From the IMG/VR virus record IMGVR_UViG_3300033074_000309: a stretch of 64,000 nucleotides of DNA. One strand, 5' to 3'. This document shows positions 14,836 through 50,938 of the stretch, one piece after another (positions within the stretch are counted from its first letter, which is position 1; every line of letters begins with the position of its first letter). Position numbers and translations under genes: made by a program. The notes under the pieces are model-generated. The model did no database searches. It saw nothing but the letters and a program-made list of their open reading frames with translations, and was not told where the DNA came from. This DNA is from an uncultured virus (IMG/VR IMGVR_UViG_3300033074_000309). Lineage: Duplodnaviria; Heunggongvirae; Uroviricota; Caudoviricetes.

Positions 14836-14864
14836 TATTCTTTCCTTTCTTTTAATTGTTTGTG

Positions 14865-14936
14865 AGCTCTCTTAGGGACTCAAACCCCATTCCTCCATAT
14901 TACAAGTATGGACATCATCATCAATGCTTAGAGAGC
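14865..14936 (-). tRNA. tRNA-Thr(TGT), degenerate T and D loops
   Basis: GCTCTCT/AGAGAGC acceptor; CCATA-CTTGTAA-TATGG anticodon arm; T loop is TTTGAGT instead of TTCGAGT. Confidence 0.7.
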
Positions 14937-20942: not shown

Positions 20943-21015
20943 ACATCACTAACTCAACTGGTAGAGTGCTGCTCTCCAAAAGCAGAAGTTCGAGGTTCAA
21001 ATCCTTGGTGGTGTG
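20943..21015 (+). tRNA. tRNA-Trp(CCA)
   Basis: ACATCAC/GTGGTGT acceptor, ACTC/GAGT D stem, CTGCT-CTCCAAA-AGCAG anticodon arm, CGAGG-TTCAAAT-CCTTG T arm. Confidence 0.9.
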
Positions 21016-21206
21016 CTAATTACTAATAGTATTTGTAAGGTATTTATATAAAGTATATTCAGCAATCATCCCATTAGAGTATAATGATTATTAATTTATT
21101 AATAAAAATTGTTACGCATATGGCCATTAACTGTGAGAAATATATAAAACAAACTCAACAACTATTAGTAATTTTCATATTAATTACTAATTTAAAACTT
21201 AAAATT

Positions 21207-21410
21207 ATGCAAAAGGTACAAACTAACATAGATCACAATATTAATGAGACTGAATTTAAGCAAATAATAGCTCTTACAGCATCATTAATTAAATATCAAG
21301 GTAAAGAGTATCTTGATAAATTAAAAGCTTTAAATGCAGGATATGAAATTCCTACAGTGAAATTCATATCTGAAAGAGAGTTACAAACTAAACAGGTAGA
21401 AAAATGTTAA
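21207..21410 (+). CDS. Hypothetical protein
   Basis: C-terminal part of ORF 21084..21410; likely start MQKVQT (coordinate approximate). Confidence 0.45.
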   Translation: MQKVQTNIDHNINETEFKQIIALTASLIKYQGKEYLDKLKALNAGYEIPTVKFISERELQTKQVEKC

Positions 21411-21595
21411 AAACAATAACACTTAACGAGTATGAAAAACTATTAAATGTACATGATTGGTATTACATGATGAGTGAAGATCAATATGTATATGCTAAAG
21501 GTGCATATAAACAACAAGAGTTAAAAGCATTAGCTACTACAGATGAATTAAAAGAAATGTTTGAATATTATCAAGCTAAACATAAAATAAATTAA
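21404..21595 (+). CDS. Small hypothetical protein (HDWYY..S.D family)
   Basis: LL..HDWYY.MS.D..VY.KG motif seen in phage proteins. Confidence 0.6.
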   Translation: MLKTITLNEYEKLLNVHDWYYMMSEDQYVYAKGAYKQQELKALATTDELKEMFEYYQAKHKIN

Positions 21596-21603
21596 AAATA
21601 TAA

Positions 21604-21660
21604 AGACTACACACAGCAAATTTAAAACTTTCAATTGGTGAAACAAAAAAAGTAGTCTGT
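21604..21660 (+). ncRNA. CAGCAA-module small RNA, copy A
   Basis: AGACTAC/GTAGTCT stem + ACA + CAGCAAA; inner hairpin TTTC-AATTGGT-GAAA; ends in CTGT. Confidence 0.6.
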
Positions 21661-21668
21661 TATTATTT

Positions 21669-21783
21669 GGGGGAATAGCTCAGTTGGTAGAGCAATGAAA
21701 AAATGTATTTAGAAATAAATACCTACAGCAAAATTATCTGCATTTTAAGCCATTGGCCCTAGGTTCGAGTCCTAGTTCCCCCA
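21669..21783 (+). tRNA. tRNA-Lys(TTT)-like gene with a 42-nt insertion (21698-21739) in the anticodon stem
   Basis: Perfect acceptor GGGGGAA/TTCCCCC, D arm and T arm; removing the insertion gives ATGGC-ATTTTAA-GCCAT and a 73-nt tRNA. Confidence 0.8.
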
Positions 21784-21826
21784 CATTAATAACCAAAATT
21801 AATTATTAACATTTAAACTAAAAACT

Positions 21827-23239
21827 ATGTCAAAATTATTAAAAGCCTTGGTTAAAGAAGAAAGTAAAAATACCACAGAAAATGGTATGAAAACATTTAC
21901 AACATCATTAAATGCAAATTTAGATTTATTTTTTATGGGTGGTGCATTTAGAAAAAGATCTGAAGAAGATTTAATTGCTTTATTTATTAAAGCATATTAT
22001 GAAGATCCAAAACTATCATTAAAGATATTAGCATATATCAGAGATTGTAGAGGAGGATTAGGAGAACGTAGATTCTTTAGAGTAGCTATTAAACATTTAG
22101 CTAAAAGTAATAAACCATTTAATATAGGATATATACCTGAATTAGGACGATGGGATGATTTATTTAAACTATTTGATACATCATTTGAGAAAGATGCTCT
22201 AAATGTAATTAAACAAGGTTTAGAAGCATCTAATGCGTTATGTGCTAAATGGATGCCTAGAAAAGGTATTATAGCTAATAAAATACGTAAATCTTTAGAA
22301 TTAACACCTAAAGAATATCGTAAAGTATTAGTTAAATTAACTAATGTTGTTGAAACAACTATGTGTAATAAAGAATGGTCTGCTATTAATTATTCACATG
22401 TACCTTCAGTAGCTAATATTAAATATAATAAAGCATTTTTACGTAATGATGAAGAAAGACGTAGAGAGTTTTTAGGTAAAGCTGTTAAAGGTGAAGTTAA
22501 AATTAACTCAAGTGTATCTTATCCTCATGATCTTATTGAGATGATGATTGATAATACAAGAAGTACACAAGAAAATCATAACCTTAAACCTAAACGCAAT
22601 GATACAGCTATTGCTATGTGGAATCAATTACCTGATTATATTGGTGAATCTAAAATTAATTTACTACCTATTTGTGATACAAGTGGAAGTATGAGTGGTG
22701 ATCCATTTTTAATTAGTGTTGGATTAGGATTATATATATCTGAAAGAACTAAAGGTATATTTAAAGATGCTTATATTACTTTTAGTGATAATCCATATTT
22801 ACAATATACTAAAGGTGATTTATTTGAAAGAATTTCACAAATGAAAGCTCATCATCCAAGTAATACAAATTTAGAAGCTACTTTTGAATTAGTATTAGAT
22901 ACAGCTGTAAAAAATAGAATTTCTCAAGAAGAAATGCCAACACATTTATTAATAATTAGTGATATGGAATTTGATCAAGCAACTAGAGCAAATCATACTG
23001 CTTTAAAAATGATTAAAGATAAATACAAATTAGCTAATTATGAAATGCCTAATATTATCTTCTGGAATGTGAATTCAAGACAAGATAATGTACCTGTAAG
23101 ATTTGATAAAAACGGTGTAGGTTTAATATCTGGTGCTTCTCCAGCAGCAATTAAAGCAGTACTTAGTGGTGATATTACACCTATGAGTATTCTATATAGA
23201 GCTGTTAATAAAGAGAAATATGAGAAATTCATAGTATAA
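21827..23239 (+). CDS. DUF2828-family helical-repeat plus vWA protein (Ro60/TROVE-like architecture)
   Basis: TENG...T..N..LDLFF, RD.RGGLGER, G.WDDL, AKW.PR, INYS.VPS.A; vWA MIDAS CDTSGSM, IISDMEFD, IFWNV. Confidence 0.8.
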   Translation: MSKLLKALVKEESKNTTENGMKTFTTSLNANLDLFFMGGAFRKRSEEDLIALFIKAYYEDPKLSLKILAYIRDCRGGLGERRFFRVAIKHLAKSNKPFNIGYIPELGRWDDLFKLFDTSFEKDALNVIKQGLEASNALCAKWMPRKGIIANKIRKSLELTPKEYRKVLVKLTNVVETTMCNKEWSAINYSHVPSVANIKYNKAFLRNDEERRREFLGKAVKGEVKINSSVSYPHDLIEMMIDNTRSTQENHNLKPKRNDTAIAMWNQLPDYIGESKINLLPICDTSGSMSGDPFLISVGLGLYISERTKGIFKDAYITFSDNPYLQYTKGDLFERISQMKAHHPSNTNLEATFELVLDTAVKNRISQEEMPTHLLIISDMEFDQATRANHTALKMIKDKYKLANYEMPNIIFWNVNSRQDNVPVRFDKNGVGLISGASPAAIKAVLSGDITPMSILYRAVNKEKYEKFIV

Positions 23240-23245
23240 CATTAA

Positions 23246-23312
23246 AGGAATGGAACTGCAAATTTAAACAAACATCAAATTTTTAACTTGAAGCGTTAAA
23301 CAACATTCCTGT
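23246..23312 (+). ncRNA. CWGCAA-module small RNA, copy C
   Basis: AGGAATG/CATTCCT stem + GAA + CTGCAAA; inner TCAA-A-TTTTTAA-C-TTGA; ends in CTGT. Confidence 0.55.
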
Positions 23313-23319
23313 ATACATT

Positions 23320-23378
23320 AGGTAACTTCCAGCAACTTAAAAATTTTCAATGCTTATGAAAAACAATAAGTTACCTGT
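23320..23378 (+). ncRNA. CAGCAA-module small RNA, copy D
   Basis: AGGTAAC/GTTACCT stem + TTC + CAGCAAC; inner TTTTCA-ATGCTTA-TGAAAA; ends in CTGT. Confidence 0.6.
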
Positions 23379-23384
23379 ATTATT

Positions 23385-23420
23385 AGTAATCTCTTGTAGA
23401 AATATGAGAGATTACTTTTT
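23385..23420 (+). terminator. Terminator closing the DUF2828/small-RNA unit
   Basis: AGTAATCTCT...AGAGATTACT followed by a T run. Confidence 0.65.
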
Positions 23421-23643
23421 ATAAACTTTATAAACAATTAAATTATGAAAAACAAGGATAAACAAAAAGTAAAGAAAATTAAAAATGTATTAACTTCTAA
23501 TGTTGAAGAATGTGATGGATTTAAAATCACAAGAATCAATGGTGTAGCTCATATAGAAGTTAATTAAGATATAACATGAATGACACACCTGAATAGTTTG
23601 CTCAGTACTAAATGGTTACGGATATAATAAATCTGAGCTTCAT

Positions 23644-24050
23644 GGGGCTAGCCAGGTATTTGCTCTTTTGATTATTAATTAACAAGCAGGTAGTGAGATG
23701 TTATCTATCACTTTAATCTATGATTTCAAGCTGTAACAGGCAACGTGGTAATCACTAACGAACTAGGCACAAGTGCAGACTTAGCCTTTTTAGTTACAAA
23801 ACAGCCAACTTCTGCAAAAGTGATTCAATTCACACCTACTCCTAAAGTAGAAGAGTTAGAGTTAGTAGCCTAATTTAGGAACACAATTTGATGAGCAGTG
23901 TGTATAAATAAATGTCAGTCTAACTTTGATAGTTTAATTAAAAACAAACTGTATATTCTGCTATAGAAGAAAAAAATTAGCTAAACTTGTAGAAAATTAA
24001 TTAAGTGAATTGGAAGAAACGAGGGTTCGACTCCCTCCTAGCCTCCACTA
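23644..24050 (+). ncRNA. ssrA: tmRNA (phage-encoded, divergent)
   Basis: 5' GGGGCTAG; 3' T arm GAGGG-TTCGACT-CCCTC then TAGCCTCCA; tag reading frame 23739-23873 after TAACA, ending ...ELELVA*. Confidence 0.8.
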
Positions 24051-24723
24051 GTAAAATAATAAATCAAATATGGAGTAATTAGCCATAACTTTAATAGTGC
24101 TGACCCTAAGCAATCATACAAATTGGCCAATAATTGAGTGATTACTGGGAGGAAATTTATAAGATATAAGCTTTAAAAAAGTAATATTGAAGATAAAAGT
24201 ACAGACCATAAATCTTATGAAAATTGATTATGTAAAGCAGATTTATTATTTTACAACACAATGCTTTCCTAGTTTACTTAGAAACTAGGTTAAATGTTAA
24301 ATTAAAATATAATGTTTCTTTACAAGTTATTAGTAATATAAGAACTAGAAAAGGAATATTGTATAAAAAAATTGGTTTAGAAGAGAACCAATTGGTGGAC
24401 TACTGATAATCGGTGGGCTCTGGGCTGATATAGAAATGTATCAGCTCTTTTTTAAAACCTTTAAAACCTCAAATATGAAACAAACAACTAATCTTAAAAG
24501 GAGTTAGTGAACCCTACCTGTAATAAGGTCGTAAATGGGTTTAATGAATAGCATTCAGCAACTCCTTTTACCTTATTATTAATCATTAAAAACAAAAACT
24601 ATTATGAAAAAATTAAAACTATTTTTAGCTATTTTAAGCTTATTTACACTATATTGCTATTAATTAAATTTATTTAATAAACTATAAACTTTATAAACAA
24701 ATCAAACAATAACCACTAAAACA

Positions 24724-25088: not shown

Positions 25089-25299
25089 AGAATATTTAAA
25101 AGCAGGAGAATATTATTGCTGGAATTATGATTCATTTATTACTGAAGAAGAAACTACTAAAGAAGAATCTCCAAGAAAAGTTAAAGTAGAATTAGATTCT
25201 AGAGCATATTCATTAGATGAAATATCTAAAGTAATTAATGCTAATTATGAAAAAGAAGATGCATTAGAGATTATTAAAACCATTAAATCTATTAAGTAA
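25081..25299 (+). CDS. Hypothetical protein
   Basis: ATG at 25081 overlaps the upstream stop. Confidence 0.5.
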   Translation: MNKEYLKAGEYYCWNYDSFITEEETTKEESPRKVKVELDSRAYSLDEISKVINANYEKEDALEIIKTIKSIK

Positions 25300-25643
25300 T
25301 GAAAAAGTATAAATTAATTAAAGAATATCCAGGTTCTCCTAAATTAGATACCATAATTATTCATAAAGATAATAGTTGGATAGATCCTTATCCTAGTGTA
25401 GAACATGATCAAATGATACTTATAGATTGGGTTATTAAATATCCTCAATATTGGGAAGAAATTACTGAAAAAGATTATGAAATATTATCTTTTAAATGTA
25501 ATAATAATATTTGGCAATTAAAAAATAATAAATATTATTATAATCATATGATTTATGATTTAGATTATATGTTAGAATGTATAACAGCGGTATGTAATCC
25601 AACAATAATTCATTCAATTAAACGTCTTTCAGATGGTGAATAG
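25299..25643 (+). CDS. N-terminal half of a gene split by an HNH insertion
   Basis: Starts KYKLIKEYPGSP; ends IHSIKRLSDGE*, and the motif continues as IFTIGD in ORF 26334. Confidence 0.6.
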   Translation: MKKYKLIKEYPGSPKLDTIIIHKDNSWIDPYPSVEHDQMILIDWVIKYPQYWEEITEKDYEILSFKCNNNIWQLKNNKYYYNHMIYDLDYMLECITAVCNPTIIHSIKRLSDGE

Positions 25644-25661
25644 TAAAATATAAAAATTTAT

Positions 25662-25692
25662 TTTGTACTTTGAATAATTATGTATATCTTTG
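25662..25692 (+). promoter_or_regulatory. Bacteroidota-type promoter (representative copy)
   Basis: TTTG-N19-TATCTTTG; equivalent -7 boxes at 28802, 33958, 42848, 50993, 53700, 55123 (+) and 16668, 17067 (-). Confidence 0.75.
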
Positions 25693-25714
25693 TATTTATT
25701 AAAATAATATAAAG

Positions 25715-26347
25715 ATGAAAAAATTAAATTTAGAATTTTTAGGATTACCAGAACATGAAATTTATGAAAATGGTATAATTAAAAGTATTGATAGAATTAT
25801 TGATACTAAATCAGGTAAAAGAATAATGAAAGGTAAAATAATGTCAAGTAAACCAGGAATACAAGGGTATCCACATATCACCTTAAATTATAAAGGAAAA
25901 TATAAAGGATATGGATTACATAGATTATTAGCTATTTGTTTTATACCAAATCCAAATAATTATCCTTGTGTTAATCATAAAGATGGTAATAAACTAAATT
26001 ATTCATTAGACAATCTTGAATGGTGTACTCATGTTAAAAATATTAGACATGCTTATCAAAATGGTTTAACACCAATAAGAAAAGGTATCAACAATAAATC
26101 TAGTGTTTTAAACCCTGAAAAAATTAATCAAATATTGGATATAGTTAAAAATACAGAAATTTCATATAAAGAAATTGGAAAGATTTTTAATGTTTCTAGT
26201 AGTTGTATTGGTGATATTGTTAAAGGTAAAACTTGGAATAATAATAAATTTTCAATACAAGATTTAGAGGATTTTATAAATTCTAATAAAATAGAAAGTA
26301 CAAAAGAATTAATTTTAAAATTAAAAGAAAATTATGGAGAAAAATAA
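25715..26347 (+). CDS. NUMOD4-HNH homing endonuclease
   Basis: HRLLA..FIPNPNNYP.VNHKDGNKLN....NLEWCT...N..HA; C-terminal HTH; own promoter. Confidence 0.9.
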   Translation: MKKLNLEFLGLPEHEIYENGIIKSIDRIIDTKSGKRIMKGKIMSSKPGIQGYPHITLNYKGKYKGYGLHRLLAICFIPNPNNYPCVNHKDGNKLNYSLDNLEWCTHVKNIRHAYQNGLTPIRKGINNKSSVLNPEKINQILDIVKNTEISYKEIGKIFNVSSSCIGDIVKGKTWNNNKFSIQDLEDFINSNKIESTKELILKLKENYGEK

Positions 26348-26813
26348 AGATATTTTTACTATTGGTGATAACACTAATTGTGGTATTATAAAAACATTTG
26401 AAAAATCTGGAGATATGATTAGGGTTTATTTTGAAGATAAACCTATAAATTATCATGTAAACTTAAAAATTTTAGAACATTGTAAACAACCATCATTTAC
26501 AACTGAAGATGGTGTTGATATATTTGAAAATGATATTTATTATGTAATTAATATTTTAGGAAGTAATGGAAATCCAAATGAATTTAAAATTTTTAGAATT
26601 GATCTTTTGGAGACTATAAATAATAATGATAAAAATTGTTATAAATGTAATCACATTAAAACATTTTCAACTAAAGAAAAAGCCCAAAAATATATTGATT
26701 TACATAAACCTAAGTATAGTTTAAATGATATTGAAAATTGTTTAATGTCTACAGCTATAACATATTTTCAACATAAAGTATTAGAAGATAATTTAAAACA
26801 ATTAAATAAATAA
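26334..26813 (+). CDS. C-terminal half of the split hypothetical gene
   Basis: IFTIGD...FTTEDGVDIFE.D...FSTKEKA..YI..KP.YSLND. Confidence 0.6.
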   Translation: MEKNKDIFTIGDNTNCGIIKTFEKSGDMIRVYFEDKPINYHVNLKILEHCKQPSFTTEDGVDIFENDIYYVINILGSNGNPNEFKIFRIDLLETINNNDKNCYKCNHIKTFSTKEKAQKYIDLHKPKYSLNDIENCLMSTAITYFQHKVLEDNLKQLNK

Positions 26814-32746: not shown

Positions 32747-33880
32747 ATGAAAAACAGAATTATTTTATCCGCAGTAATGTTAGGGTCAGACCCTGAGATT
32801 TTATTATTTTCACCTTCAGAAAATAGACATGTAACAGGAATTGGTTTAATTGGTGGTACTAAGGAAAAACCTACACCAATTACCAATGATGGACATTTTA
32901 TTCAAGAAGATGGGGTTGCTGCTGAATTCAATATTCCACCATGTAAAACAGCTGAAGAATATATTAAGAATATTAATTTTGTAAAAAATTATATTCAAGA
33001 TACTATTTGTACACCTAAAGGATTAATATTAAGTAAAGAAGCTAGTGCTATATTTACTGATTCACAATTAGCATTTAAACAAGCTCAAGAAATTGGTTGT
33101 ACACCAGATATTGATGCTTGGCAGTTAATTATGAATAGTCCTGAAGGTTATACAAGTAATTTAAGAGCTGTAGGTAAAATTGGCTGCCTCCTTACTAAGT
33201 AATTAGTATTGCAAATTGAGTAAAAACGGTGAACAAATGTTAAATTTGATAAATATTTTGAATACCGTGCTAAGACAACAGATAATACTGTTGGACAGTG
33301 TAACGCATAGAAGATGAACCTCTTAATTGAGAATATAATTCTTCCAAGAGTACTCAGATCCTAACTATAGTCTATAGTGGATTAAAATATATGCTGAACT
33401 ATAAGAAGTTAACAGTACTTATAGAACTAAAGGATAAAAAGCCTTTAGGATAACAGGATGGGCCACATCCATGTAGGATATAATAACCCTGATGATAAAA
33501 CATCATTTGAAATAGCTAAAGCTATGGATTTATTCTTAGGAGTAGGTTCAGTATTATTAGATAAAGATACTCAACGACGTTCTTTATATGGTAAAGCAGG
33601 GGCTATGCGTCTAAAATCTTTTGGTATGGAATACCGTACTTTAAGTAATTTTTGGATATTTGATGATAAATTAATTTCATGGGTATTTAATAATACATTA
33701 AAAGCTTTAGAGTTTATTAACGCTGAAGGAATAATTACTAACCCTGAAGATATTGTAAAATGTATTAATACATGTGATAAAGAATTAGCATTAGAAATTG
33801 TTGATGATTATCATATTGAAATACCTGAATTACAAGAATCTGAAGAACAAACAACAGTTGCATATGCAGGAACTAACTAA
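32747..33880 (+). CDS. phiEco32-like COOH-NH2 ligase type 2; spliced, exons 32747-33175 and 33461-33880 (282 aa)
   Basis: GSDPE, GLIGGTK..P, QED.V.AEFNIPP, GC.PD; LRAVG|GHIHVG restored on splicing; RR.LYGKAG..R, EYRTLSNFW. Confidence 0.88.
33176..33460 (+). mobile_element. Group I intron (no ORF, 285 nt)
   Basis: 5' exon ends in U, intron ends in G; guide TGGCTGCCT pairs both exons; AACGGTGAA/AATACCGTG core; P7-like GCATA/TATGC. Confidence 0.88.
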
Positions 33881-42319: not shown

Positions 42320-43857
42320 GTGGGACAAGGAATATTAGTAATCGGAGAATCTGGTAGTGGTAAATCAACCTCTATTGAGAATCTTGAACCAAAAGAAACG
42401 TTTATCATCAACGTTAAAAATAAACCTCTACCTTTTAAAGGGTGGAGATCCAATTATATACCTTTTACAAAGGATACACCTACAGGTAATTATATTGGAA
42501 CAGATGATCCTAATGTGATTTTGCGTATTATGCAACATGTTAGTGATAAAATGCCACATATTAAGACTCTAATTGTAGAGGATTTTCAATATATGGCAGC
42601 TAATGAATATATGAATAGAATTAAAGAAACTGGGTTAATTACTGTAGCTCAGAATAAATCTATCTAATTGACTGGAAGTTCCTTAGAGTCTTACACACTC
42701 AATAACACAGTAATGATGTTATCATAGTAAAAGAGGTAAGAATTGGATAACCAGCAGCCAAGCATCTTTATGAGATGAAGGTTCAACGACTAGTCGAAAG
42801 ACGTACATTTAATTTAAAAATTATTTGGAAATGGTAGAAACTTTACCTATATTTGTAAATAAAAATTTACACAAATGGGAAATATAAGAAGAAATAATGG
42901 TAAAATAATTAAAGAATATAGAGCTTGGAAAGCAATGAAAGCTAGATGCTATTCAGAATGTAATAAAAATCATGGGAAATATCATGAAAATAATATACAA
43001 GTTTGTAATAGATGGAAATATAGTTTTGAAAACTTTTTAAATGATATGGGATATTGTCCTGAAGGATATTCTTTAGACAGGATTAATAATAATGGTAATT
43101 ATGAACCATCTAATTGTAGATGGACTGATGATTTAAAACAATCTAATAACAGAGGAGAATTTAACTTAATTTATACATATAAAGGAGAATCTAAAACTTT
43201 AAAAGAATGGTCTAAAATCTTAAATATAAAATATACAACTTTATATATGAGAATTACTAGACAAAATTTAAGTTTTAATGAAGCTATTAATGTTAAAGAT
43301 GAAGATAAATTAACTGAATATAACGGTCAAAAAAGATCTATCAAAGATTGGTGTATTATTTTAAATTTACCTTATAAAACTATTATAAATAGAAAACATC
43401 AAGGTTGGTCAATAAAAGACTGTTTTGAAAGACCTATTAAAAAAGTTAAGATATAGTCTGATCTCATATGAAAATATGAGTTAACAAAAATGTCCAGAAA
43501 TTTAATGATATTGGTAAAAACATTTATTCAGTAGCAGATATTCATAATAAACTAAGAGATGATTTAATTGTAGTATATATTAATCACCCAGATGAATCAA
43601 CTGATGCTATGGGAGATCGTAAAGTTAGAGCTAAAACTATAGGCAAAATGGTGGATTCCGTTGTAACTTTAGAAGGATTATTTACTACAGTGTTGTTTAC
43701 TAAAGTAAAGAAAGGTAAGGAGGGTATGGAATATAGCTTTATTACTCAATCAGATGGTATGACAACTGCAAAGAGTCCTAGAGGAATGTTTGAAACATTA
43801 GAAATTCCTAATGATTTAAAATTCGTCATAAACAAAATCAACGAGTACAATAGTTAA
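42320..43857 (+). CDS. Sak4-like/AAA_24 ATPase; spliced, exons 42320-42635 and 43493-43857 (226 aa)
   Basis: GESGSGKSTS, KPLPF, EDFQY; KETG|FQKF restored; KTIGKM, EGLFT.VL, TAKSP.GMF, IPNDL. Confidence 0.87.
42636..43492 (+). mobile_element. Group I intron (857 nt) containing an HNH gene
   Basis: P1 CTGGGT/GCTCAG; TTGACTGGAA/CCAGCAGCC core; GTTCAACGACTA/ATATAGTC; terminal G. Confidence 0.88.
42875..43456 (+). CDS. Intron-encoded HNH endonuclease
   Basis: W.AMK.RCY, I.VC.RW..FENFL.DMG..P...SLDRINN.GNYEP.NCRW; stop codon lies within the P7 3' strand. Confidence 0.9.
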   Translation: MGNIRRNNGKIIKEYRAWKAMKARCYSECNKNHGKYHENNIQVCNRWKYSFENFLNDMGYCPEGYSLDRINNNGNYEPSNCRWTDDLKQSNNRGEFNLIYTYKGESKTLKEWSKILNIKYTTLYMRITRQNLSFNEAINVKDEDKLTEYNGQKRSIKDWCIILNLPYKTIINRKHQGWSIKDCFERPIKKVKI

Positions 43858-50485: not shown

Positions 50486-50938
50486 ATGACAAATATAGGA
50501 GTAAAATTTGATTTTGATAAATTAAATAGACCTGCTACTGCTGAAGAATATAAGGGTGATGAGAAATCATCCCCTTGTGCTTCACATGATAAGGAAACTG
50601 AAATTGCTGTAGCTAAAGAAAGATTAGAAACAGTTAAGAGTAAAGCAGGTTTAAAATATGACAACGGTAAAACAAGATATGATTTATATCCTTTAGATGC
50701 TTATAAAGGTTGTGCAGATGTATTAACATTTGGTGCAGCTAAATATACACCTAATGGTTGGAAATCAGTTCCTGATGGTAAGAATAGATATTATGCAGCA
50801 ATGATTAGACATCTTAATGAACAATTAGAATATGCTCAAAATGGTGGTATAGGTTTATGTTTAGATAAAGAAAGTGGTTTACCTACTTTAGATCATGCTC
50901 AATGTTGCTTAGTATTTTTAAGGGAAATCAGTAAATAA
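50486..50938 (+). CDS. dATP/dGTP diphosphohydrolase-like protein (DUF5664)
   Basis: G.KYD.GK.RYDL.P, VL.FGA.KY....W, Y.A..RH, D.ESGLP...HA. Confidence 0.8.
   Translation: MTNIGVKFDFDKLNRPATAEEYKGDEKSSPCASHDKETEIAVAKERLETVKSKAGLKYDNGKTRYDLYPLDAYKGCADVLTFGAAKYTPNGWKSVPDGKNRYYAAMIRHLNEQLEYAQNGGIGLCLDKESGLPTLDHAQCCLVFLREISK

Follow-up and report, generated by a model that had tools for sequence, protein, structure and literature searches.

A tRNA-Lys-like gene with a capped CAGCAA module in its anticodon stem, next to the gene of a predicted Ro60-like protein in an uncultured tailed phage

The window, by which the whole analysed stretch of 64,000 nucleotides is meant, is an AT-rich (GC 23-30%) piece of a tailed-phage genome, in which genes for major head protein, portal, terminase and DNA polymerase were identified together with numerous homing endonuclease genes. 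Only two tRNAs were called by ARAGORN in these 64 kb, tRNA-Thr (14864-14936) and tRNA-Trp (20943-21016). A compact unit was revealed in the order RNA, tRNA-bearing RNA, protein gene, RNA, RNA and terminator, and its features are as follows.

21602..21661, + strand: open CAGCAA module RNA of about 60 nt, 7-bp terminal stem (21604-21610 with 21652-21658), CAGCAA at 21614-21619; Rfam Dicty_Class_I_RNA, 22.8 bits at 21605-21659
21669..21783, + strand: tRNA-Lys(TTT)-like gene, 115 nt, with the module within the 5' strand of the anticodon stem; Rfam tRNA 52.6 bits, covariance model R1 (see below) 101 bits, fold z -3.51
21698..21739, + strand: insert of 42 nt, the capped module, between tRNA positions 29 and 30; direct reading and Rfam alignment
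21705..21722, + strand: module hairpin, 7 bp (21705-21711 with 21716-21722), closed by GAAA; fold and covariation of 7/7 pairs
21726..21731, + strand: CAGCAA motif, single-stranded, 3 nt 3' of the hairpin; ACAGCAA in 9/11 pattern-independent relatives
21742..21748, + strand: anticodon loop, canonical, 7 nt, anticodon TTT at 21744-21746; direct reading
21827..23239, + strand: gene of a DUF2828 + DUF7788 protein, 470 aa, with predicted Ro60-like ring and vWA domain; Pfam, phrog_850, AF2 and Foldseek
23244..23313, + strand: open module RNA, CTGCAA variant, stem 23247-23252 with 23304-23309; script and fold
23319..23378, + strand: open module RNA, CAGCAA at 23330-23335; Rfam Dicty_Class_I_RNA 30.0 bits, E 0.0034
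23385..23416, + strand: terminator-like hairpin and T run, which would close the RNA-protein-RNA unit; terminator reading

Elsewhere in the window, genes split or truncated beside homing endonucleases were observed at 25299-26813, 32747-33880 and 42320-43456. Halves of a phrog_11079 gene lie on both sides of an HNH gene (25715-26347), a gene of the COOH-NH2 ligase family (phrog_3815) was found as two halves with 255 nt between them, a gap that could hold an intron, and an HNH gene comes after a short Sak4-like ORF. GIY-YIG homing endonucleases are encoded at three places, 28838, 40817 and 50988. A tmRNA-like RNA was also detected at 23644-24050 (+), with a full-length Rfam tmRNA match of 39.1 bits (below the gathering score of 47; E 9.5e-14 when 1.6 kb were searched), a T arm like that of a tRNA and a CCACTA end; it received no ARAGORN call.

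The tRNA-Lys-like gene has a perfect acceptor stem of 7 bp (21669-21675 with 21776-21782), perfect D and T stems of 4 and 5 bp, D and T loops with the usual tRNA letters, and discriminator A. Its anticodon stem is split and also perfect, and excision of 21698-21739 in silico left 73 nt that form a tRNA whose anticodon arm has a 5-bp stem, a loop of 7 nt and the anticodon TTT. The insert consists, in order, of an A run, the 7-bp hairpin with its GAAA loop, 3 nt, CAGCAA and an 8-nt linker. The Rfam tRNA model (RF00005, gathering 29) spans 21669-21783 from end to end (model positions 1-71), with 53 nt in place of the 11 that the model has for distal anticodon stem and loop. ARAGORN made no call at 21669-21783, where the 5-bp anticodon stem is not continuous. 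The fold of the 115-nt RNA was better than that of 200/200 shuffles.

The perfect acceptor, D and T arms had already been read in the first-pass annotation, and both direct reading and the full-length Rfam match agreed with them; its anatomy of the insert (42 nt at 21698-21739, between positions 29 and 30, 73 nt after removal) proved exact. It had further judged the insert far too short for a group I or II intron. Group I introns have a conserved core and a size of roughly at least 200 nt, which a 42-nt insert lacks, and no intron family was matched at the element by Rfam, either at gathering or at E up to 10 in 21400-22000. An assembly chimera had been named as an outcome that would overturn the reading, and it is ruled out because DNA contigs from two other metagenome studies cross the element intact: one (X7 record 24) covers 21348-21782 with 0 differences, and another from the second study (X5 record 18) extends over 21567-23300 without gaps and with 8 differences. 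The element is thus real DNA. The nearest record (G001) gave no match to 21500-21900. Two wastewater metatranscriptomes (X15 and X16) contained exact contigs of parts of the locus, e.g. 21779-21929 and 22175-22376, and none over 21696-21744; within this coverage a joined form 21697/21740 was not seen. Apparent joints in contigs, e.g. from 21693 to 21752-21754 with 16-18 foreign letters, were rejected as splicing; since such joints were present in DNA runs too, they were attributed to tRNAs of other organisms that share the D and T arms.

When 21000-24000 was compared with phage records by distant BLAST, a match to the element, 76% over about 106 nt, came from the 735-kb genome of an uncultured phage. 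In this phage the gene at L001 3003-3120, which resembles tRNA-Arg(TCT) (Rfam tRNA 52.6 bits), carries an insert equal in kind and site to that of the window, with a hairpin whose letters differ yet pair. A pattern made of the motif and the T-loop consensus was found in at least 124 IMG/VR stretches, and the covariance model R1 of the whole element was built from 19 pattern-found stretches (alignment A2). Searching with R1 gave 37 strong matches (E <= 1e-9) from 29 sources; 11 of the 37 lay outside the exact pattern, and ACAGCAA was retained in nine of these 11. Compensatory changes were found in the acceptor, T and module helices. In the alignment of the 37 relatives, which was fitted to the model and so favours pairing, 97.3% of cells were paired overall and 93.8% in the module hairpin, where 7/7 pairs were changed on both sides. 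The covariation score of the hairpin was 1.045, versus 0.235 in shuffles (0/500 reached 1.045) and at most 0.18 with slid partners, a control that uses the same alignment. The insert is therefore a conserved module and not a product of chance, made of a 7-bp hairpin, 2-3 nt and ACAGCAA. Elements of this kind were also arranged in tandem within single phages, four in L048 and three in L055.

Two properties vary among these relatives. The module is grafted after tRNA position 27, 28, 29 or 31, or in the loop, and a canonical anticodon loop is kept in about half of the 37 (22 by script, 18 by a stricter reading). The canonical relatives have the identities Thr, Asn, Arg, Phe and Gly, and two are suppressor-like, with the anticodons CTA and TTA in canonical loops (L125 241-364 and L057 266-384). 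The others have loops without U33 or of the wrong size, yet acceptor, T arm and module were retained. The first-pass annotation had held that random or unstructured inserts, or decaying arms, in homologous loci would speak against it: the inserts turned out to be structured and covarying, while about half of the anticodon arms are degenerate.

The module was not limited to tRNAs. The open modules of the window have a terminal stem of 6-8 bp, then 2-3 nt, CAGCAA, a variable middle and an A-rich run 5' of the 3' strand; at 21602-21661, 3 nt stand between stem and CAGCAA, the A run precedes the 3' stem strand, and the RNA starts with AAG and finishes with CTGT. In the embedded copy the GAAA loop replaces the free ends and the tRNA replaces the variable loop. 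The earlier claim that the insert is the same module in circularly permuted form was thus borne out by the open versions at 21602-21661, 23244-23313 and 23319-23378. Three other window sites flagged by the helix script (1507-1565, 24546-24624 and 50785-50854), without AAG and CTGT ends, were not counted.

The association of these RNAs with DUF2828 genes was observed from both directions. DUF2828 was detected in 39 of the 45 viral records that had been selected by the RNA pattern alone, including 17/17 of the RNA-pattern records that were at least 90% complete, and in 0/14 control genomes. Among the 14 records having both, the embedded element lay within about 2 kb of DUF2828 in 11; the remaining three are genomes of 412-735 kb with a distance of 30-134 kb, which counts against a Y-RNA-like reading. 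For the reverse test, 80 loci were picked for the DUF2828 protein alone. In the 750 nt before the gene, CAGCAAA occurred 24 times on the gene strand versus 4 on the other strand, and in the 750 nt after it 26 versus 2. CAGCAA was found in these flanks in 68/80 loci, with at least one helix-closed module in 66/80 according to the script heuristic, whose false positives are sizeable: 42% of the CAGCAA sites on the + strand were helix-closed, versus 9.5% on the opposite strand and 15-19% for control hexamers. Up to five module RNAs follow one another in a row (e.g. L192, L195, L196 and L205), and the CAGCAA module is the one element common to the RNAs that flank DUF2828 genes.

Permuted forms made up a further architecture. 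In L114 the order is 5' stem strand, ACAGCAA, anticodon hairpin, T arm, loop-closed acceptor, D arm, A run and 3' stem strand. Such forms were recognized by a strict script in 13/80 DUF2828 loci, and they matched the Rfam YrlA family (RF02553) below its threshold, with 33.6-40.6 bits (gathering 69) in 8/20 loci scanned; across both scans the scores of permuted relatives were 26-40.6 bits, with full-length alignments. Six long R1 matches occurred in the 80 protein-picked loci, four of which were accepted as embedded (L176, L180, L177 and L169, the last three being related to one another); L189 and L198 were rejected as embedded and read as permuted. A search of other DUF2828 loci for tRNAs with the same insert, which had been suggested from the window alone, hence yielded 4/80, making the embedded form the rarer architecture. 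An embedded and a permuted form stand side by side in L176. Taken together, three architectures of the module were distinguished: an RNA that stands alone, a permuted form built around a tRNA body, and an insert in a tRNA that is normal in other respects.

Three to five module RNAs in a row were noted within 800 nt before the DUF2828 gene in L192, L195, L196, L204 and L205. Their inner domains differ widely, some being short hairpins and others structured inserts of up to about 250 nt, which suggests a family with one handle and many effector parts. In another locus (L129), a freshwater-1 RNA (1919-1980; Rfam RF02979, 74.3 bits, gathering 72) was found within a long tRNA array upstream of the DUF2828 gene.

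Cultured phages also possess these RNAs, which are unannotated or mislabelled there. In Campylobacter phage CP30A, two open modules directly precede the gene of its 'RNA-binding protein', and Pseudoalteromonas phage J2-1 has one permuted form together with open forms. The jumbo Yersinia phage fHe-Yen9-04 gave four R1 matches of 114-126 nt. Three of its elements were looked up (L215 523-636, 1346-1471 and 2356-2476, at 297922-298035, 298745-298870 and 299755-299875 of NC_042116.1, with the motifs CGGCAT, ACAGCAT and CAGCAAC), and they carry the RefSeq labels 'tRNA-Pseudo-AAA', 'tRNA-Pseudo-GAA' and 'tRNA-Undet'. At L207 154-1407 (NC_042116.1 100148-101401) of this phage, an annotated RNA ligase is encoded two genes upstream of the DUF2828 'RNA-binding protein'. 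This position fits the RNA-repair setting that is discussed for phage TROVE proteins in PMC7824862.

The DUF2828 gene of the window starts 44 nt downstream of the tRNA-like element, and its product (21827-23239) matched phrog_850, 'RNA-binding protein'. By sequence the product showed no relation to Ro60: in Pfam at E up to 0.01 there was no match to TROVE, with DUF7788 and DUF2828 alone detected, NCBIfam gave no match, and Ro60 was not found in PDB by sequence or profile search. The structure model pointed elsewhere. AlphaFold, with an alignment of 40 sequences, gave a model of pLDDT 86.7 and pTM 0.86, and its 12 best Foldseek matches were all Ro60/Rsr/TROVE chains over the full length (E 2.6e-8 to 5e-5, TM up to 0.62), among them 2i91, 1yvr, 1yvp, 2nvo, 9kop and 9l5y with E 2.6e-8 to 7.7e-6 and TM 0.46-0.62. 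Xenopus Ro60, human Ro60, Deinococcus Rsr and the Ro60 of Thermus phage phiLo are the proteins behind these matches. The window protein is accordingly predicted to have the HEAT-repeat ring and vWA fold of Ro60. In a protein atlas search DUF2828 clusters alone were returned; more than 6,000 DUF2828 relatives were found at E <= 1e-10, and at least 571 viral stretches were confirmed. DUF2828/DUF7788 proteins (P0121-P0242) were also seen in Mortierellomycota, Zoopagomycota, chytrids, land plants, green algae and Daphnia, and one eukaryotic DUF2828/DUF7788 protein is named a TROVE domain protein by UniRef.

For Ro60 particles, it is described in Chen et al. 2014 (PMC4201824) and in PMC12135203 that Ro60 is linked by the Y RNA to an effector, e.g. 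PNPase, and that YrlA has a tRNA-like domain; the two papers also give a precedent for Ro60 homologs of phages that have Y-like RNAs beside them. Compared with YrlA (RF02553), as presented in PMC4201824, the window element is likewise encoded beside a Ro60-type gene, in so far as the predicted fold is Ro60-like, and it likewise has a tRNA-like body (acceptor, D and T) joined at the anticodon-stem end to a putative binding helix with an A-rich 3' strand. It differs in being non-permuted, in ending at the acceptor and in its GAAA-capped helix, whereas the permuted topology is found in L114; it also keeps a complete anticodon stem-loop and the motif ACAGCAA, and its partner is DUF2828/DUF7788 and not Pfam TROVE. 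RF02553 gave no match on the window at gathering (69), nor in 21400-22000 at E up to 10. Thermus phage phiLo (9kop, 9l5y) resembles the window in having a phage Ro60-type protein with Yrl1 and Yrl2 encoded just upstream, but the protein is a recognised Ro60 homolog, and Yrl1 and Yrl2 are described in PMC12135203 with a CGAA motif and without a tRNA body.

The other systems to be compared are those in which tRNA genes are interrupted or rearranged. Introns of tRNA genes are known as group I introns in the anticodon loop in bacteria, and as bulge-helix-bulge introns at non-canonical sites in archaea. The window element is like them in its insertion into the anticodon arm and in the restoration of a tRNA on removal; it is unlike them in that the 42 nt are far below group I size, the phage is one of bacteria, the element also exists outside tRNAs and its position varies. 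The circularly permuted tRNA genes of red algae, which are processed to ordinary tRNAs, share with the present RNAs the occurrence of the same tRNA parts in permuted and non-permuted arrangement, but here a conserved module linked to a protein sits at the junction. A search of mainly open-access literature gave no paper on RNAs linked to DUF2828, and the element can be placed with the Y RNA/YrlA sort, within a large RNA-protein system that is apparently undescribed.

The element is most likely a tRNA-shaped partner RNA of the Ro60-like protein rather than a broken tRNA. More specifically, the 115-nt RNA is probably a stable, non-permuted chimera similar to Y RNA and YrlA, whose capped CAGCAA helix would bind the Ro60-like protein and whose tRNA body would be the effector; protein binding, a stable 115-nt form with insert and the identity of the effector are what we infer here. 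A mechanism can be modelled by analogy on Ro60-Y RNA particles. With acceptor, D and T arms intact, the 115-nt RNA could be excised by tRNA-processing enzymes from a transcript shared with the Ro60-like gene. The 42-nt insert would be retained and form an extra arm on the anticodon stem, in which a 7-bp helix lies between the A run and NNN-CAGCAA; the same helix with the same asymmetric loop closes the RNAs that stand alone in the locus. The proposed binding site of the DUF2828 ring is the capped helix together with its A-run/CAGCAA loop. In the YrlA consensus an outer stem is likewise followed by a short 5' strand that contains GC and faces an A-rich 3' strand, so a relationship between the two binding sites is possible. 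The tRNA body, in which the lysine anticodon arm is still present, would serve as effector domain, which might bring a tRNA-recognising factor to the protein or offer it a tRNA look-alike.

The first-pass annotation had proposed such a two-domain RNA, with a binding module and a tRNA effector as in YrlA, and had named an unusual tRNA intron as the alternative. The two-domain reading gained support from the Ro60-like fold, the shared CAGCAA module, the permuted forms that match YrlA, the covarying hairpin and the anticodon loops lost in relatives. What counts against it, besides the three distant pairs above, is that RF02553 did not match the window element and Pfam TROVE did not match the protein, and that the flawless split anticodon stem, the canonical loop and the discriminator A are those of a working tRNA-Lys after excision. 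The last point belongs to the intron, which would be a small intron-like element in a real tRNA-Lys gene: 42 nt would be removed by a protein route, e.g. endonuclease and RNA ligase, for which the Ro60-like protein might act as a guide, and AAA would be decoded by the 73-nt product in an AT-rich phage that has only two other tRNAs in 64 kb. Removal indeed restores the 5-bp stem, the 7-nt loop and a 73-nt tRNA, canonical anticodon arms are also restored in at least 18/37 relatives (Thr, Asn, Arg, Phe and Gly), and an RNA ligase is encoded two genes away from DUF2828 in a cultured phage that possesses such elements. However, copies of the module in free-standing RNAs or at the termini of permuted tRNA-like RNAs cannot be introns, a varying graft point is expected of a structural junction and not of a fixed splice site, and the loss of a canonical anticodon loop in about half of the relatives is a poor fit to an intron in a decoding tRNA. 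To our knowledge no bacterial mechanism for such splicing has been described. The intron was thus weakened by the free-standing and permuted forms and by the degenerate anticodon arms, and we regard it as unlikely.

Intact tRNA identity features would equally suit an RNA that still translates as tRNA-Lys with the insert as an extra arm, and long extra arms are tolerated elsewhere in tRNAs, e.g. as the variable arm. With a size of about 25 nt, an arm at the anticodon stem would however be expected to face the decoding site of the small subunit, and the module is kept in relatives whose anticodon loops are degenerate, so such a decoder is very improbable. Just as little credit is given to a dead tRNA gene that was struck by a small mobile or repetitive element and has no function. 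The labels 'tRNA-Pseudo' and 'tRNA-Undet' on the copies of the cultured Yersinia phage would agree with it, but the arms are perfect, compensatory changes are seen in the acceptor, T and module helices of 37 relatives, tandem arrays exist within single phages, and the identical element was recovered from independent metagenomes.

The partner RNA of a Ro60-like protein remains the preferred reading of the element, and the open modules of the locus gave a further resemblance. They were matched by the Rfam family of Dictyostelium Class I RNAs (RF01414), all below its gathering threshold of 41.5, with 22.8 bits at 21605-21659, 30.0 bits at 23319-23378 (E 0.0034) and 28.5 bits in L199. In the RF01414 consensus a terminal stem of 6 bp is followed by CUUACAGCAA; an A run stands close to the 3' strand, and CUG forms the end. 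Class I RNAs are described in Kjellin et al. 2021 (PMC7919456) as about 60 nt long, with a covarying 6-bp terminal stem, a motif of 11 nt adjoining the 5' strand of this stem, AAG at the start and CUGU at the end, and as 'unique to dictyostelid social amoebas'; the Fragrep pattern of the D. discoideum Class I RNA given in PMC5054030 has the same motif. The open modules are alike in their length of about 60 nt, a terminal stem of 6-7 bp and varying sequence, a motif ending in ACAGCAA directly after the 5' strand, an A-rich stretch before the 3' strand, an AAG or UAG start and a CUGU end. These hallmarks were found in 21602-21661, in 23319-23378 and in 34 aligned phage modules, whose rows were chosen for a 6-bp helix, so that the pairing rate is circular and the variety of pair types alone is informative; a G-C pair at the outer stem end is invariant in the 34. 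They were not found in the embedded copy, which has no free ends. In a large Rfam E-value search of 10 DUF2828 loci, one Class I match was listed, which makes RF01414 too remote a model to detect such modules routinely.

The two groups also differ, with phages here and amoebae there, with an embedded and capped module in the window, and with an RRM protein as the known binder in Dictyostelium. Avesson et al. are reported to have named four Class I RNA-associated proteins in 2011. Dictyostelium was absent among the 120 eukaryotic DUF2828 matches listed. The link between Class I RNAs and phage modules is consequently a lead and not a finding. It is conceivable, though on balance rather doubtful, that the CAGCAA-stem RNAs of phages and the Class I RNAs of dictyostelids are one family, with a common partner in the DUF2828 branch of Ro60-like proteins, which also occurs in fungi, plants, algae and Daphnia. 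If this were true, the orphan Class I RNAs would be analogues of Y RNAs, and the embedded and permuted forms would be living intermediates in the origin of tRNA-mimicking Y RNAs, by a route in which a Ro-binding helix was grafted onto the anticodon stem of a tRNA. The phage RNPs would then present real anticodon arms (Lys, Arg, Thr, Asn and Phe) to repair ligases or to enzymes of the host that target tRNAs.

Ro60 and Y RNAs form a conserved RNA-surveillance system, and its bacterial tRNA-like partner RNAs have no known effector. The motif match offers a testable lead on the Class I RNAs, whose mechanism has been open since 2004. The RNAs of DUF2828 loci appear to be a large unannotated sister system, with one simple and searchable module common to all. 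The embedded form would explain the 'pseudo' and 'undetermined' tRNA labels in cultured jumbo phages, and it may serve as a natural test of which tRNA parts are needed by a Ro60-like particle.
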